A program made the position numbers and the translations under genes. 64,000 bases of DNA from a virus: the IMG/VR virus record IMGVR_UViG_3300044846_005309, positions 55,784-119,783 of that record, one strand, 5' to 3'. Of this stretch, positions 23,696 to 58,165 are shown one piece after another. The stretch's first letter is position 1, and each line of letters starts with the position of its first letter. The notes under the pieces were generated by a model. The model was not told the origin of the DNA. It saw nothing but the letters and a program-made list of their open reading frames with translations, and searched no databases.

Positions 23696-23711
23696 TTTCA
23701 TAAGTATCTGC

Positions 23712-24074
23712 ATGAAGATAGTTGTACCTTTAGTACAGTTCCAACAGCAACTCAGGATATTTCATTGGCAAACCGAGAGTTACGCTCAACATAAAGCTTT
23801 AGGTAAAGCATATGAAGCCCTTGATGCCTTAATAGATGGTTTTGTTGAGACGTTTATGGGCAAATACGGGCGCTTGAAATCGACCGAAGGCAACTATACT
23901 ATTACTCTTAACAATCTAGAAGGTAATGATATTAATAAAACTATTGATGAATTTATCACTTATCTAGAAACGTACGAGAGCGAACTTGAAGAAAGTGATA
24001 CTGATCTTTTCAACATTAGAGATGAAATGAAAGGTCAATGTAACACGTTAAAGTATCTATTGACATTAAAATAA
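23712..24074 (+). CDS. ferritin/Dps-like four-helix protein (DUF5856-like)
   Basis: FHWQTESYAQHKALG...DGFVETFMGKYG...NIRDEM...YLLTLK. Confidence 0.75.
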   Translation: MKIVVPLVQFQQQLRIFHWQTESYAQHKALGKAYEALDALIDGFVETFMGKYGRLKSTEGNYTITLNNLEGNDINKTIDEFITYLETYESELEESDTDLFNIRDEMKGQCNTLKYLLTLK

Positions 24075-24123
24075 TAATTTAAGCTTGCTTTTGAGCCAAA
24101 ATAGCTCAAAATGAATAGCTTAA

Positions 24124-24705
24124 ATGAAAGTTGTACAGCCAGACGCTAAAACTAGTCTTCTTCTCAACCGTAACTACCAAGCTTTTGCTTTTTGTTCGGC
24201 TAGAGCGGCGATCCGTCATTTTATGACTGGTAAAGTAAAAGGGCTAGATGCAGAAAACAATACTCACGAATTTGATACCTGGTCCACTCCTTATGTTCAA
24301 CTTCATGCAGATCAGCCCGCTCTACGTAGTGCAAGTCAAACATGGGCTATACCTACTGTTTTAGTTTGTACCAATCATTTCGGTTTTCACCCTCGCAAAG
24401 GAGACAACGTTTCGCTAAAAAATCTTTTTAATATCTATAAAGGTACTTGCCAGTTTTGTTTAAAGCCGATACCATTCAGTCATGCTACTAAGGACCACCT
24501 TTATCCAAAATCTAAAGGCGGTACTAATCACGATTTTAATATGGTTCTAGCATGCCGTAAATGTAATAGCGAGAAAGATAACATCTTTCCTTACTATGAT
24601 ATTAACGGTAACGAGGTAAAACCACGTAAGTTAATGCATTCCGGTGTGTTCATTCCAGATATCCAAGATGTTAGAGAAGAATGGAAACCTTTCCTTTATA
24701 TGTAA
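24124..24705 (+). CDS. HNH endonuclease
   Basis: CQFC, TKDHLYPKSKGG, NMVLACRKCNSEK. Confidence 0.85.
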   Translation: MKVVQPDAKTSLLLNRNYQAFAFCSARAAIRHFMTGKVKGLDAENNTHEFDTWSTPYVQLHADQPALRSASQTWAIPTVLVCTNHFGFHPRKGDNVSLKNLFNIYKGTCQFCLKPIPFSHATKDHLYPKSKGGTNHDFNMVLACRKCNSEKDNIFPYYDINGNEVKPRKLMHSGVFIPDIQDVREEWKPFLYM

Positions 24706-24713
24706 AAAAGTGC

Positions 24714-24741
24714 TTGACTTTAAGAGAAAAAGTACCATTAT
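24714..24741 (+). promoter_or_regulatory. sigma70-like promoter of the tRNA array
   Basis: TTGACT-16 bp (ending GTAC)-CATTAT; same architecture recurs at 32032, 32352 and 33788. Confidence 0.7.
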
Positions 24742-24761
24742 ATGTAAATATTAAATAACAA

Positions 24762-24848
24762 ATGATCAAATCCATAACCAGTTCAACAATTAATCCAGCA
24801 CAATGCGATACATTCGCCTGGGTTCATTATGAACTGGGCAGGGTTTAA
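24762..24848 (+). CDS. putative attenuator leader peptide MIKSITSSTINPAQCDTFAWVHYELGRV
   Basis: ATG 20 nt after the -10 box; 28 codons encode all 20 amino acids; stop codon lies in the antiterminator 5' arm. Confidence 0.75.
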   Translation: MIKSITSSTINPAQCDTFAWVHYELGRV

Positions 24849-24880
24849 AGCAAATTTTCTAACGAAAAACTTTAAACCCT
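24840..24880 (+). promoter_or_regulatory. antiterminator stem
   Basis: AGGGTTTAAAG (24840-24850) is the perfect reverse complement of CTTTAAACCCT (24870-24880), which overlaps the terminator 5' arm. Confidence 0.75.
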
Positions 24881-24905
24881 AGGCCTTAAAAACCTAGGGT
24901 TTTTT
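24874..24905 (+). terminator. intrinsic terminator (attenuator)
   Basis: AAACCCTAGG-9 nt loop-CCTAGGGTTT running into a 6-T tract. Confidence 0.8.
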
Positions 24906-25131
24906 AATGCGAGCTGCCGCTAACCAAGCAGCCAAGACGTCTTATAAGAGGCATCCAAACCGGCGAATAAAAAGCCGATAGGGGTGAGATCAATAAGTTC
25001 TTTATTAGATGAAATAGAGCGGCCCCGGACGCTCTTTAAAACAATTCGCCGGGCCTTTTTCCTGCCTGCACTGAAGTCTGGGTCCATATCCAGGAAGCAG
25101 CAATGCTCTAGGTGCAGCGTGGGACTATTTT

Positions 25132-25206
25132 GCCTCTATAGCACAGTGGTAGTGCAACAGTTTTGTAAACTGTAGGTCGTTGGTTCGAATCCGACTGGAG
25201 GCTCCA
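25132..25206 (+). tRNA. tRNA-Thr(UGU)
   Basis: Cloverleaf, ACAGT-TT TGT AA-ACTGT, GTTCGAATC, CCA end. Confidence 0.92.
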
Positions 25207-25221
25207 TTTTCAACGACTCGT

Positions 25222-25587
25222 TTATACAGCATTGTATGCTGTGTTGTAATCTCGATTTTTATTTTGAAGCAATCTATATAAAACTTTGTCGTTCCCCGTT
25301 TGTTTTACTTCAGCATCATTTATATACTTATTTACAGTGTTGTAATCTTTATTAAGCCAAGCAATAGTACCTAAATAGTATTTTACTATACCTTGAGAAT
25401 CGTCGGTTTTAGCTTGGGTAGCTGCTTTATTCATCATAGATATAGCTTCTTGCGTTTTACCTTGAATAGCTAATTCTTGAGCAGCATGCCAAGTGTCTAG
25501 TGAAGGAATATTTAGCGGGTTAGTGTTACCCGTATAATTTTCGATTAACGATGAAAGATACAAATTTACCCTTTTATCAAATTTCAT
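25222..25587 (-). CDS. hypothetical helical (TPR-like) protein inside the tRNA array
   Basis: Antisense ORF filling the gap between two tRNAs; TAAATA upstream on the minus strand. Confidence 0.55.
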   Translation of the reverse strand: MKFDKRVNLYLSSLIENYTGNTNPLNIPSLDTWHAAQELAIQGKTQEAISMMNKAATQAKTDDSQGIVKYYLGTIAWLNKDYNTVNKYINDAEVKQTGNDKVLYRLLQNKNRDYNTAYNAV

Positions 25588-25601
25588 ATACAATATTTAT
25601 T

Positions 25602-25693
25602 GGAAGCGTGGGTGAGTGGATAAAAATCGCTTGTCTTGAAAACAAGAATCGGTGATGAGCCGGTCGTAGGTTCGAATCCTACCGCTTCCGCCA
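25602..25693 (+). tRNA. tRNA-Ser(UGA)
   Basis: CTTGT-CT TGA AA-ACAAG, long variable arm, GCCA end. Confidence 0.92.
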
Positions 25694-25698
25694 ATTTT

Positions 25699-25897
25699 GC
25701 GCGAGGGGTAACCAATAGTCGGTTCTTCAATGGGCCAGTACCCTGAGTGGGCTGAGAAATACCAAGCACAAACAGGAAACCCGTGCCGGACTAGTACGGA
25801 AGTAGGAAGAGATGCATCTCGCTCCCTACAAGTCGGGGTTGGACGAAATTGCTTGGGGCTCTAAGAAGGTAAGGTTGACAGCCTCCCTCGCGCGCCA
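25699..25897 (+). ncRNA. unidentified ~200-nt RNA with tRNA-like acceptor stem and CCA end
   Basis: 5' GCGCGAGGG pairs with 3' CCCTCGCGC, followed by GCCA; GC-rich; flanked by T-rich spacers like the tRNAs. Confidence 0.6.
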
Positions 25898-25902
25898 TTT
25901 TT

Positions 25903-25987
25903 GGGAGTATGGCACAGCGGCAACTGCAGGAGACTGTAAATCTCCCGCCTTCGGGCTTCATTGGTTCGAGTCCAATTGCTCCCACCA
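25903..25987 (+). tRNA. tRNA-Tyr(GUA)
   Basis: GGAGA-CT GTA AA-TCTCC, variable arm, ACCA. Confidence 0.92.
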
Positions 25988-25993
25988 CTTTAA

Positions 25994-26075
25994 GCGGACG
26001 TGTCGTAATGGTAGCCGAGATGGTCTTAGAAGCCATTGCTTATGCGTGTGGGTTCGAGTCCCTCCGTCCGCACCA
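25994..26075 (+). tRNA. tRNA-Leu(UAG)
   Basis: ATGGT-CT TAG AA-GCCAT, variable arm, ACCA. Confidence 0.9.
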
Positions 26076-26094
26076 CTTTAAAATAAATATTATT

Positions 26095-26376
26095 ATGAAA
26101 ACACTAGCATTGCTTATTATTAGTTTGACTATGACCGGCTGCTACGCATCCCCGGTTATTCGTGGCCCTCGAGTAATTGTTGTTGATCCGCATCCTCGGG
26201 TAATTATTGTTGAACCAGCTCCTCGAGTAATTGTAACGAGAGAATACCCTCGTTATCCTAGTGTTTCGTGGCATATTGATGTAAATTTTGGACGGGGTCA
26301 CGGTCATGGCCATGTTTACGGCCCTATTCGTGGTCATTCGAATCCTGGCATTTGGCGTCACTATCGCCATTGGTAA
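26095..26376 (+). CDS. small lipoprotein-like protein (Pro/Arg/His/Gly-rich)
   Basis: MKTLALLIISLTMTGC signal with lipobox; PRVI repeats; start at 26095 because the longer ORF overlaps tRNAs. Confidence 0.6.
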   Translation: MKTLALLIISLTMTGCYASPVIRGPRVIVVDPHPRVIIVEPAPRVIVTREYPRYPSVSWHIDVNFGRGHGHGHVYGPIRGHSNPGIWRHYRHW

Positions 26377-26379
26377 TTT

Positions 26380-26467
26380 GGAAGGATGGCTGAGCGGCCT
26401 ATAGCAGAAGTTTACTAAACTTCCGAAGAGCAATCTTCCGGGGGTTCGAATCCCTCTCCTTCCGCCA
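26380..26467 (+). tRNA. tRNA-Ser(ACU)
   Basis: GAAGT-TT ACT AA-ACTTC, long variable arm, G73, CCA. Confidence 0.85.
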
Positions 26468-32655: not shown

Positions 32656-33059
32656 GGGCGTGTTCTGGATTCTACTTAATAGTGGACTTATTAGAAGCAA
32701 GCAAGGTTGTTAGACCTTATAAAACTAGCAAAAAACATAAATGGCATTGTAAATAGCCTTAAGGGTGCTTTTGCTGCTCCGGTTGCTGCTCTCGCAGCAT
32801 TCTTCAGCACAGAAGAACTCCAATTCGCAGCCTAAGAATTGCGATCGTTATAGTATAGATTCTCGCTATATATTATAACGTTGACTAGCGAGGATGTTGT
32901 TTGAGGTACTTGGAATAAATAAAACAACATTAAAGCTGTTCCTAAAGTACTATACATTGCGTATTAACAGTGTTAAGTACTTATATATTAATACTAAGCT
33001 TGTAGAAACTAGTCGGAAAAGTATTAGGCACGCGGGTTCGACTCCCGCCACGTCCACCA
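32656..33059 (+). ncRNA. ssrA: tmRNA
   Basis: 5' GGGCGTG..GGATTC; 3' GCGGGTTCGACTCCCGCCACGTCCACCA with G3:U70 Ala acceptor; internal tag ORF 32743-32835 ending ...LQFAA*. Confidence 0.9.
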
Positions 33060-33837: not shown

Positions 33838-33914
33838 GCTCGCTTAGCTCAGTTGGTTAGAGCAGGATCTTTACATGGTCAAGGTCGTGGGTTCAAGTCC
33901 TACAGCGAGCACCA
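33838..33914 (+). tRNA. tRNA-Val(UAC)
   Basis: GATC-TT TAC AT-GGTC, ACCA. Confidence 0.9.
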
Positions 33915-33918
33915 TTTT

Positions 33919-34163
33919 CGAAACTCGACTAGGCGAGTATAAATAGAATTTAAGCCTAGTGCGGCTGCTGATACCGTCGACGCTACCAGCAGCATATCGT
34001 CTCGCGTCAGTGACAGTGCACAGTCATAAAGTGTTCCTAGTATAGCCGCTTTCATGGATATATTATACATGCTGATCATAGAAAGAGTGACAAAAACATA
34101 TATGTATTTGCGAAGTATATGTACAAATCACCGCCTATAGCAATAGGGCTAGCGAGACACCCC
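33919..34163 (+). ncRNA. unidentified structured RNA between tRNA-Val and tRNA-fMet
   Basis: No long ORF; stems ACTAGGC/GCCTAGT, GCTGCTG/CAGCAGC and long-range GTCTCGC/GCGAGAC. Confidence 0.45.
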
Positions 34164-34169
34164 TTTTCT

Positions 34170-34245
34170 TGCAGAGTGGAGCAGTAGTAGCTCGACTGGC
34201 TCATAACCAGTAGGTCGACGTGTGCAATTCCGTCCTCTGCATCCA
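34170..34245 (+). tRNA. tRNA-Met(CAU), initiator-like
   Basis: GTGGAGCAGT D-arm, ACTGG-CT CAT AA-CCAGT, atypical T-loop, CCA. Confidence 0.75.
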
Positions 34246-55780: not shown

Positions 55781-58165
55781 TTAAGCTTGTAAAAGCTCGT
55801 TAAAGTCTTGAGAAGTTTTGGTTGCATAGAAATTTACTAAGATAAACTCAGCAGTACGTACTGGTTTAATATAAATGTCGACCACCATTGTGTTATCGTC
55901 AATTACATTAGCAGTATTGTTTGTTTCATTGCATACAATGAGATAATCGTAAAGACCTTGTGTATTTTTAGCTGTTTCAAAGAGAGGGGACAGAGTATTT
56001 ACCGTGCGACTACGTGTGAATGTAGTGTTAGGTTCGAATACAAAGTATCTCATTGTGCGTAGGGTAGCCTTTTCCAGATAAAGGAATAGACGGCGTACGT
56101 TAATGCGATCAAATGCACTCGGAGCTTTTAGTAAGGTCTTTTGACCGAATACTGTATAGCCTTCGTTAGGGAAGAACACTACAGGATTTAGAGAGATCTT
56201 ATAAAGCAAGTCACGCTGTTTCTGCTGCGGGTTAACACCTAGATCAGTTAAGCCGTTAATAACGCCACGAGTTAGACCAGCTGGTGCAACCCATGGGTAT
56301 GATAGAGCGTCACTAGCTGTCATCATTGCTGCAGCATAACCAGAGAACGGTACCCATACATTCTTTGAAGTAAAGATATCGTTAATCTTGGCCCAGTTTG
56401 CATAAGCTGTAGCATAGCTTGTATTGTATGCTGTATAGCTATTGCGTAATGGCCAATATATGTTTTGGGAGAAGTTCTTTGACTTATCGTCAAGGGTCTT
56501 ATAATTTTCCCCGGTAACGAAAATCTGACGTAGTGGGTCAGAAATGAATAAGCAATCCTTACGACGGTTTCTTGTAAAGCTTTCAAACTGAGCGGTAATA
56601 GTATTCCAGTTATCAAGTAATACACTTGTTGTTACTGGGTTACCGTTCGAAGCTGTAAGAGCGTTAACGTAACTTTGTAGGGTAGCACTTACAACTGTAT
56701 CGTCGAAGTCTGCTGTGCCCGCTGCAACTGTTGTTGCAGCAATTGTTGAAAGACCGCCGTCGACTACTAGATCAATGTCAACTACATCAGTATTTTCAGC
56801 TAGATTAAGAACGTAATCAAGCTTTGTGCTTACAGTACCAATAACTTTATTTTGATTGGTTGGTAGAGTTTCTGCATAGGTACCAACTGCATATAGGTTA
56901 TTAGCTGGTTTAAAGGAGCCTACGGTGAGATAAGCAGAAGCTTGAGTATAGAATGTGTAGTCCGGATCTGCGCTAGTAGAATTAGTAATAGTAGAGATTG
57001 TTGTATCCTTAAAGACTCTTACTCTCTTTGTTGAATTACCATTTGCATCCAGCCATACAGTCTTATCAGAAATGTTTGGATTTACTAATACTTGCAGATT
57101 GTTTGAATTGTCATTTGTAGCGGTCTGCAAGAAGAATGAAATTGGCTGACCACCTTGTTGATCCTGTACAGTGCGTTGACTATAAAGAGATCCGGTATAA
57201 CCTTCCTGTAGAACATACTGTAAAGTAGTAGTAGTTGGTGAGAAAGGAGAAGGACGTACACGGAAAAGTGATAAGATTAATGTATCACTATAACCTGATG
57301 CTGCGATATTGAATGTAGGAAGATCTTCAACGTCTTTGGATAAGCTGTTAATATTTGAAGTATATGTAGCGCTTAACGAGAAACCAATACGGTTATCAGG
57401 TATAAAAGTATAATTTTGATTAGAAGCTAAAGCATTGTCTGAGAAGTAGTTTGAGCCTACTGACCAAATATGGCCTGCATCATCATAGTCGGTAGCAGGG
57501 TTATTACTGTAACTATCTCCAATATTGAGGTAGTAACCTTCAAACTTTTCGTTAATAGTGGTCTTGGCTTTGTTAAGTACGATTAAACCTGCAGCACTTA
57601 AGGAGTTTAATGCTCCGTTACCGGAAACAATAAAACTACTTAAACCAACGTTACCGGTAGTTGCCTTCCAGGTAAAATTACCCTGGGCAATACTTTGATA
57701 TTGGGTTTCGGTAAGCTTTACCAGGGCAGGCTCTCCGAAATAGTAACCTTGAGCAGAGCTTAATGGAACAGTACCCGCTACTGCACCGGAAGCAGGGTAG
57801 GTCGAAATTTCACTAGCAGCAGGAACTGCAACTACTGGATAAGCAAGAGCGCTGTATTCGCTAGCTGTACCTTCGCCACCTGCGGCGCCGTAAGGCAAGC
57901 GGGCGACTTTTACAGTAGGATTGCCACCGTTAGTAAGAAGCTGTCTTACTGTGTAATAAAAATAGCGTTCAGCCGCATTGGTTGGTGTGCCGTAGATTTG
58001 TTCGAAATCTGTAAGAGAGGTGAGCTCAACAATCTCATAAGTAGGGCCCTGAGGGGCAAAACCTGTGATAAGCACATTTGTGCCGGCTGGTGTAATTGCT
58101 CTTGTAGAAAGATCGATTTCACGAACTTCTACACCTGGGGAATTAATAGTGCGTACGTTTGCCAT
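55781..58165 (-). CDS. tail sheath protein (T4 gp18-like)
   Basis: SPGVEVREIDLS, PWVAPAGLTRG, FGQKTL, AFDRINVRRLF, FEPN, IYIKPVRTAEFI. Confidence 0.95.
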   Translation of the reverse strand: MANVRTINSPGVEVREIDLSTRAITPAGTNVLITGFAPQGPTYEIVELTSLTDFEQIYGTPTNAAERYFYYTVRQLLTNGGNPTVKVARLPYGAAGGEGTASEYSALAYPVVAVPAASEISTYPASGAVAGTVPLSSAQGYYFGEPALVKLTETQYQSIAQGNFTWKATTGNVGLSSFIVSGNGALNSLSAAGLIVLNKAKTTINEKFEGYYLNIGDSYSNNPATDYDDAGHIWSVGSNYFSDNALASNQNYTFIPDNRIGFSLSATYTSNINSLSKDVEDLPTFNIAASGYSDTLILSLFRVRPSPFSPTTTTLQYVLQEGYTGSLYSQRTVQDQQGGQPISFFLQTATNDNSNNLQVLVNPNISDKTVWLDANGNSTKRVRVFKDTTISTITNSTSADPDYTFYTQASAYLTVGSFKPANNLYAVGTYAETLPTNQNKVIGTVSTKLDYVLNLAENTDVVDIDLVVDGGLSTIAATTVAAGTADFDDTVVSATLQSYVNALTASNGNPVTTSVLLDNWNTITAQFESFTRNRRKDCLFISDPLRQIFVTGENYKTLDDKSKNFSQNIYWPLRNSYTAYNTSYATAYANWAKINDIFTSKNVWVPFSGYAAAMMTASDALSYPWVAPAGLTRGVINGLTDLGVNPQQKQRDLLYKISLNPVVFFPNEGYTVFGQKTLLKAPSAFDRINVRRLFLYLEKATLRTMRYFVFEPNTTFTRSRTVNTLSPLFETAKNTQGLYDYLIVCNETNNTANVIDDNTMVVDIYIKPVRTAEFILVNFYATKTSQDFNELLQA

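Follow-up and report, generated by a model that had tools for sequence, protein, structure and literature searches.

Here we describe a short regulatory unit that stands at the head of a transfer RNA (tRNA) array in an uncultured phage. The unit lies in a 64,000-nucleotide stretch of DNA, hereafter the window, which covers positions 55,784 to 119,783 of the IMG/VR virus record IMGVR_UViG_3300044846_005309. It starts with a promoter, continues with a short leader open reading frame (ORF), an antiterminator hairpin over the stop codon of this ORF and an overlapping intrinsic terminator, and leads into the tRNA genes. Its parts, their order, the mutual exclusivity of the two hairpins and the conservation of the whole can be read directly from the sequences, and the comparison of 16 homologous leaders indicates that the promoter-to-tRNA unit is a real conserved regulatory unit. 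It probably works through ribosome-dependent attenuation of one kind or another at the phage tRNA operon. As to the more specific proposal, that it is a ribosome-dependent transcription attenuator gauging overall decoding speed and gating the phage tRNA operon, our belief and our doubt are about evenly balanced.

An initial annotation of the window had listed a promoter, an ORF with 20 amino acids and 26 codons, an 11-bp pairing and an overlapping terminator, and every one of these elements was present in the sequence (Table 1). The product of the leader ORF is MIKSITSSTINPAQCDTFAWVHYELGRV. It contains 20/20 amino acids and is encoded by 26 different codons, with ACA and GTT being the only repeats, and across the 17 positions from residue 11 to 27 as many as 16 different amino acids occur. 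A consensus scan of the + strand revealed no further promoter-like site in 24742-25564, which leaves the one at 24714 as the sole candidate ahead of the boxA leader and tRNA-Thr. Because the terminator sits between the only visible promoter of the operon and its antitermination site, the unit can be regarded in practice as an attenuator. In the same scan the terminator was listed on the - strand only, because its + strand loop of 9 nucleotides (nt) exceeds the scan's loop limit of 8 nt. The hairpin formed by segments 1 and 2 has a calculated energy of -13.8 kcal/mol in the window (RNAfold), and the terminator one of -13.7 kcal/mol on the + strand. The leader is without a Shine-Dalgarno sequence, which is normal for this phage, because the same holds for 45/46 of the larger ORFs in the window; a GGAG/GAGG/AGGA motif was found upstream of just 1/46, and the A/T-rich upstream regions of these ORFs resemble that of the leader. 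This proportion points to a host that starts translation without Shine-Dalgarno sequences.

Table 1. Features of the leader and the start of the tRNA operon, in window coordinates
Feature	Coordinates	Strand	Details
Sigma-70-like promoter	24714..24741	+	TTGACT (24714-19), 16-nt spacer, CATTAT (24736-41); 9/12 consensus matches
Short A/T-rich 5' untranslated region, no Shine-Dalgarno	24748..24761	+	putative; predicted transcription start
Leader ORF	24762..24848	+	28 codons, ATG 24762 (20 nt after the -10 box), TAA 24846-48 inside segment 1
Self-complementary stretch in ORF (hairpin H0)	24778..24837	+	possible pause/timing element
Segment 1, antiterminator 5' arm with stop codon	24840..24850	+	AGGGTTTAAAG, exact reverse complement of 24870-80
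Segment 2, antiterminator 3' arm and 5' part of terminator stem	24870..24880	+	perfect 11-bp complement of segment 1
Intrinsic terminator	24874..24905	+	10-bp stem (arms 24874-83, 24893-902), 9-nt loop, T6
Structured leader of tRNA operon	24906..25131	+	boxA-like CGCTCTTTA (25030-25038), GTTCTTT (24997-25003)
tRNA-Thr(UGU), first array gene	25132..25206	+	ARAGORN and Rfam

Homologues of the leader were needed because a scan of about 250,000 windows yields 20-of-28 cases by chance. They were collected from IMG/VR and metagenome contigs through the neighbouring DUF5856 protein, with exact and gapped DNA patterns, and in one metagenome scan whose pattern consisted of segment 2 and the terminator only, the ORF and segment 1 being left free. 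The latter scan returned 74 stretches, 15 of them homologous and 59 unrelated terminators. After duplicates and truncated contigs had been removed, the final set comprised 16 leaders from uncultured phages (the window and loci labelled L). Two loci were dropped as the same contig as another (L047 as L005, L173 as L003) and others for an identical ORF (L189 = L046, L226 = L050, L243 and L244 = L048, L248 = L218); also left out were L188, whose contig lacks the ORF, L002, whose contig breaks off after 67 nt of the query, L003 as a deletion form and L051 as an unrelated match. From the peptides and alignments, and not from a tree, six clades of leaders were drawn by eye: A (window, L005, L245), B (L046, L237, L181), C (L007, L205, L049), D (L048, L190, L229, L218, L242), E (L050) and F (L184).

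This comparison supported the proposed anatomy, in which promoter, leader ORF, antiterminator over the stop codon, terminator and tRNA genes follow one another, and the homologous leaders keep the ORF together with the sequences for the alternative pairing: the frame is open in 16/16 leaders and both hairpins are predicted in all 16. A -10-like hexamer (CATTAT, TACTAT or TATAAT) ending 19-20 nt before the ATG was found by script in 14/16 leaders; in L218 and L184, TATAAT was read by eye from the flanks, and a -35-like TTGAC/TTGAT lies upstream in most leaders. The ORF is 25-30 codons long in every leader, and the in-frame stops over the whole set number 0, vs 21 and 37 in the other frames. Under structure-preserving shuffles the probability of an open frame is 0.12-0.28 per sequence, and the six clade means multiply to 8.8e-5. 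The ratio of nonsynonymous to synonymous differences (pN/pS) is about 1 in most pairs and about 0.46 for the window vs L245; by this measure, the sequence of the leader peptide is drifting almost neutrally.

Across the 16 leaders, the energy of the segment 1:2 hairpin ranges from -10.9 to -14.8 kcal/mol and that of the terminator from -11.4 to -15.6 kcal/mol, and in 16/16 the two are nearly iso-energetic, with a difference of at most about 3 kcal/mol. Segment 2 and the terminator's 5' arm have 7 nt in common, an overlap present in all leaders, and the two stems are therefore mutually exclusive. The segment 1 core, GGTTTAAAG, is invariant in 15 distinct rows, the ORF upstream of it having diverged by about 50%, and the pattern used for the metagenome search did not include segment 1. 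Since the core is kept in both stop-codon frames, the constraint on segment 1 acts on the nucleic acid and not on the peptide. The stop codon is a TAA inside segment 1 or a TAG just before it, 20-30 nt ahead of segment 2 in the 16 leaders, a placement that is weak evidence alone, as a stop is met there in two of the three frames in any case. Segments 1 and 2 are separated by a variable loop of 14-19 nt, so segment 2 would lie beyond a terminating ribosome. Covarying stems had been suggested as a check on the initial annotation, and the search for them succeeded in the terminator but not in the antiterminator. In the terminator stem, one pair shows a compensatory change, being AU in 11 rows and GC in 4, and 97.3% of the cells are paired; RNAalifold over all 16 leaders returned the terminator as the sole consensus helix. 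The inner stems of the segment 1:2 loop vary by clade (TTTTC/GAAAA, GAAAA/TTTTC, GTAA/TTAC); they are out of register and were hence excluded from the covariation count.

Some other readings of these repeats were also considered. A DNA operator for a dimeric protein was dropped, the spacing of the inverted repeat varying from 14 to 19 nt. Nor is GGGTTTAAAG a genome-wide repeat: 2 exact sites were found, both in the leader, and 12 sites with at most one mismatch vs 7.45 expected. H0 and the boxA leader behind the terminator were not part of the initial annotation. Inside the ORF, the self-complementary stretch H0 belongs to a region, 24748-24910, whose minimum-free-energy fold has -45.7 kcal/mol (z -6.2), and the region 5' of segment 1 folds better than its shuffles in 16/16 leaders (z -1.7 to -5.3). 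Its CCA/TGG core alone is alignable between clades A and B. RNAalifold over these two clades found 4 pairs and no compensatory change, so the case for the in-ORF hairpin is that of the per-sequence z scores. Pairing of the 3' half of H0 with segment 1 was rejected, as the two were not complementary by eye.

The amino-acid content of the leader was then compared with several null expectations. Under the phage's own amino-acid composition, the probability of 20 different amino acids in 28 residues, with Met fixed, is 6.7e-5. Among the 28-residue windows of the phage's larger ORFs, 0/15,980 contained 20 different amino acids, and of the window ORFs of 20-40 amino acids only one, the leader ORF, held all 20 (1/207). 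The use of 26 different codons among 28 has a probability of 0.003; the diversity of codons is high in most leaders, with only 18/27 in L184. Each of the 16 leaders contains 15-20 different amino acids, where the null means are 13.9-15.0 (proteome composition), 14.1-15.3 (dinucleotide shuffles kept open) and 14.0-15.0 (base-pair-preserving shuffles). The diversity z is positive in 16/16 leaders under both dinucleotide and structure-preserving shuffles, and the clade mean z under the structure-preserving null is 3.1, 2.6, 1.9, 1.2, 2.4 and 0.5 for the six clades. When the discovery clade is removed, the combined Z is 3.8 under the structure-preserving and 3.5 under the dinucleotide null; if three lineages are taken as independent, the corresponding values are 2.9 and 2.7. 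The composition of the leaders is flattened: Cys stands at 4.1 times and Trp at 3.0 times its proteome frequency, Thr and Ser are twofold enriched, and Leu, Gly, Lys, Phe and Asp are at half of their proteome frequency or below. Among 14 representative peptides (L005 and L229 were omitted as near-duplicates), Cys is present in 13/14 (3.2 expected) and Trp in 11/14 (3.8 expected), at positions that shift between clades. A design that samples every amino acid has statistical support from these comparisons but is not proven, and not all members of the family show it.

The footprint of a ribosome covers about a dozen nt 3' of its A site. In the mechanism that we propose, a ribosome at the last codons or the stop would cover segment 1 and not segment 2, which is 20-30 nt further on; segment 2 would then be free to pair with segment 3, and transcription would end at 24905. 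If segment 2 emerges before any ribosome has arrived at the last codons, it would pair with segment 1 and block the terminator, and RNA polymerase would continue, gain a boxA-dependent modification and transcribe the tRNAs. The output would depend on the transit time of the ribosome across the whole ORF. Given the broad codon sample, slow decoding of almost any codon, as a consequence of starvation, tRNA loss or tRNA cleavage, would lead to read-through and more phage tRNA, a negative feedback on decoding capacity. H0 may, quite conjecturally, time this race as a pause element, and an untranslated leader should read through, unlike that of trp. A stronger form of the proposal, which we put forward tentatively and with more doubt than confidence, is a pan-amino-acid gauge, in which selection would keep the sampling of aminoacyl-tRNAs maximal, including the rare Cys and Trp, and a shortage of almost any tRNA would open the attenuator and switch on the whole tRNA operon. 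Such a shortage could result from starvation, from tRNA decay induced by the phage or from the action of a host anticodon nuclease, and the opened operon would be transcribed under boxA antitermination, making the unit a tRNA-supply homeostat.

A structured leader of the tRNA operon lies directly after the terminator in 14/15 loci with downstream DNA, the exception being L184, which has an ORF there instead. In the window, an A-rich stretch with ATT comes after CGCTCTTTA, and the boxA is partly inside a hairpin; exact TGCTCTTTA was found in L007, L048, L190, L188, L205, L243 and L244, and weaker variants in L218 and L242. The tRNA-Thr(UGU) gene also follows the leader in L003, L005, L007, L048, L049 and L050, and in L007, L048, L049 and L050 a tRNA-Ser gene lies 6-7 nt after it, with more tRNA genes downstream. 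An Rfam search of 24714-25131 gave no match at E<=1 to a riboswitch, T-box or known leader. The 3' module of the structured leader (25059-25131) is optional, as it is missing in L003, L050, L237, L181 and L218, and its site is occupied by an insert of about 200 nt in L007 (9485-9695) and L188. Searches for the structured leader elsewhere returned at least 118 stretches for a 15-nt pattern, none of which was homologous by BLAST of the leader; 11 viral stretches for a degenerate pattern, namely 5 known homologues and 6 unrelated pieces of coding DNA; and 12 stretches for a two-part pattern in genome contigs, 0 of them homologous, so that neither a hint of the host nor a bacterial counterpart emerged. 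The 39 more distant DUF5856 loci (L006, L008-L045) were likewise without such a boxA leader.

Several observations weigh against a gauge of overall decoding speed. The initial annotation had proposed a general sensor of the tRNA pool, and had suggested, as checks, a search for short ORFs of maximal diversity before related tRNA arrays and a shuffle test for coverage of all 20 amino acids. In favour of this proposal, the diversity of the leaders exceeds three null models with an excess in 16/16, and Cys and Trp are kept; but the full set of 20 is not conserved, being limited to the window and L005, with 15-18 amino acids in the other clades. His is missing from 10/14 representative peptides, and the diversity of L190, L229 and L184 is near the null. 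Codons cognate to phage tRNAs are not enriched in the leader (21/28 vs 68% genome-wide, p 0.28), so the idea that the leader copies the codon set of the array was rejected; the window array has no tRNA for Ala or Phe, both of which the leader uses. Because of the relatedness of the clades, the combined p-values assume more independence than there is. As for the switch, 9/11 pairs of the antiterminator never vary, and this lack of covariation neither supports nor refutes the helix; segment 2 was also fixed by most search patterns. The terminator equals the antiterminator in stability and, with 3-4 nt free as a toehold, might displace it without a ribosome. In the window, only tRNA-Thr directly follows the leader, and then come a 123-codon - strand ORF (25222-25593), which separates tRNA-Thr from tRNA-Ser in this phage, and another promoter-like site. 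Finally, a deletion in L003 (8645-8735) has joined leader codon 8 to the T tract of the terminator. With codons 9 onwards, the two hairpins and the terminator gone, the L003 promoter runs straight into the boxA leader. This direct fusion counts in favour of the proposal, but the locus also shows that the unit is dispensable.

The same structural evidence would be expected from an attenuator that senses only coupling, that is, ribosome loading and the ability of the ribosome to keep pace with RNA polymerase as in pyrBI, with the amino-acid mix as a by-product. The incomplete coverage in most clades, the two clades near the null and the lack of match between the codons and the phage tRNAs agree with this explanation, and the composition follows in part from the G+C-richer self-complementary stretch, since CCA (Pro) and TGG (Trp) are the two sides of one stem. 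However, the excess of diversity survives composition- and base-pair-preserving shuffles in 16/16 leaders, and Cys and Trp persist at changing positions, and we consider coupling alone unlikely. A comparable degree of improbability attaches to the view that promoter, ORF and terminator make up a short transcript of their own, be it from a small gene or as a small RNA with two functions, with the tRNAs being served by constitutive leak through the terminator or by upstream transcription and the segment 1:2 pairing being merely a structural stem. The 160-nt unit is indeed very stable (z -6.2), it resembles many small RNAs in its single-stranded 5' end and variable middle hairpin, covariation for switching is absent, and the symmetry of the terminator suffices for its listing on the - strand. 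On the other hand, a pN/pS of about 1 speaks against a sequence-specific function of the peptide and the frame-specific open ORF against a purely non-coding RNA; the 7-nt overlap, because of which the stems cannot coexist, is present in all leaders; and there is no promoter-like site on the + strand from the terminator to 25564, the position before the boxA leader being kept in 14/15 loci.

Very improbable, in our judgement, is the explanation that what is conserved is a structured RNA leader in which the reading frame is open by chance, which would render the amino-acid count meaningless. In its favour, the probability of an open frame is 0.12-0.47 per sequence, and a 20-of-28 peptide is expected by chance in a scan of such size. 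Against this stand the stop counts over the 16 leaders, the conservation of the ATG and of its distance from the -10 hexamer, and the small product of the clade-mean probabilities given above.

Known regulatory systems share some of these traits. Leader-peptide attenuators of amino-acid operons include trpL, hisL and pheL and the multivalent thrL and ilvL. Attenuators of this class are the subject of PMC1183508 and PMC3082878. Like the trpL/hisL type, the phage unit has a promoter-proximal short ORF, an intrinsic terminator and an overlapping pairing, whose dependence on ribosome position is predicted here. In contrast to that type, the phage leader has no run of regulatory codons and instead shows an unusually even mix, with 15-20 amino acids in 25-30 codons; its element consists of three segments rather than four; and the regulated genes are tRNAs and not biosynthetic enzymes, in an element that belongs to a phage. 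Nearest in logic to the phage leader, by analogy, are upstream ORFs that sense general translation stress, as described for the vmlR leader of Bacillus subtilis (PMC9226507) and for toiL of E. coli (PMC12121999). In both, ribosome stalling on a short ORF remodels the leader RNA and turns on a gene that helps translation, as is proposed for the phage, and toiL responds to stalls at different positions (PMC12121999). Unlike the phage leader as proposed, vmlR and toiL have antibiotics as their signal and an ABCF protein or a toxin-antitoxin pair as their target; toiL works through occlusion of the ribosome-binding site and Rho (PMC12121999), and the abstracts claim no broad amino-acid sampling for either.

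Induction of an additional tRNA array under impaired translation, as proposed for the phage, is found with the trn array of Anabaena sp. PCC 7120, which responds to translational stress (PMC8421152; PMC10272220). It differs in that the repressor TrcR acts at direct repeats over the promoter, and the terms 'attenuat-', 'leader' and 'terminator' are absent from PMC8421152. The boxA of rrn operons is quoted as UGCUCUUUA and that of lambda as CGCUCUUA in PMC2724277. The window sequence resembles these rrn boxA and lambda nut elements, the form in L007 and L048 is identical to the rrn boxA as quoted there, and the A-rich spacer with ATT follows. A boxA matching UGCUCUUUA thus precedes untranslated genes, and binding of NusB/NusE to it is predicted; unlike rrn and nut boxA, that of the phage precedes a phage tRNA array and lies partly within a hairpin. 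Full-text searches of the literature outside the subscription journals gave no paper on a leader-peptide attenuator or boxA leader at a tRNA operon or phage tRNA array, or on comparable control of tRNA genes.

Other genes of the region are as follows. An HNH endonuclease gene (PF14279, PF01844; 24124-24705) ends just before or within the leader promoter, and because its last codons recur upstream of the leaders of relatives (L005, L046, L048, L049 and L050), it appears to travel with the unit. The tRNA array contains a full-length transfer-messenger RNA gene (32656-33059; Rfam 103.5 bits), for which ARAGORN gives a tag peptide. A match to the Pistol ribozyme (33923-33974; 39.8 bits vs a gathering threshold of 34.5, E 1.7e-4) lies 9 nt past tRNA-Val (33838-33914). 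A tRNA with a CAT anticodon (34170-34242) was found by Rfam (49.2 bits) and missed by ARAGORN, tRNA-Ser at 26380-26467 was called with the anticodon ACT, and a ferredoxin-dependent bilin reductase gene (PF05996; 26667-27341) lies between tRNA genes.

The virus record comprises 119,783 bases of an uncultured virus, with an estimated completeness of 57%; the window has about 35% G+C. A search of sequencing runs matched 24 runs, including 19 DNA runs that share at least 96% of the sampled words, 16 of which are possibly from the source sample. The window is contained in DNA runs from lake water metagenomes, and one run not flagged as a possible source spans 23700-26400 without differences. Three RNA-labelled runs share only 5-7% of the sampled words, and two 'RNA?' runs mapped on 23700-26400 resemble DNA of a relative. 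From the single metatranscriptome run, contig pieces fell on the tRNAs and one piece of 193 nt on the HNH gene, but none on the leader, a result that counts neither for nor against its transcription. Among cultured phages, a blastn search of the leader region 24600-25250 against 50,697 phage records returned 84 records, none at 80% query coverage, and all 60 of the matches listed lay over the tRNA-Thr part; a tblastn search with a 997-amino-acid protein returned 13 records, all below 60% identity and at no more than 11% coverage. No cultured phage matched the leader in these searches.

Little is known of how phages control the timing and level of tRNA-array expression, or of how any organism could couple the transcription of tRNA genes directly to decoding speed. 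The natural deletion in L003 and the many leader variants are ready-made material for testing the proposed attenuator. If the gauge of decoding speed is real, it would extend leader-peptide attenuation from a single amino acid or pathway to the whole tRNA pool, it would offer synthetic biology a compact sensor of elongation rate, and it would provide a mechanism by which phage tRNAs compensate for the loss or cleavage of host tRNAs.

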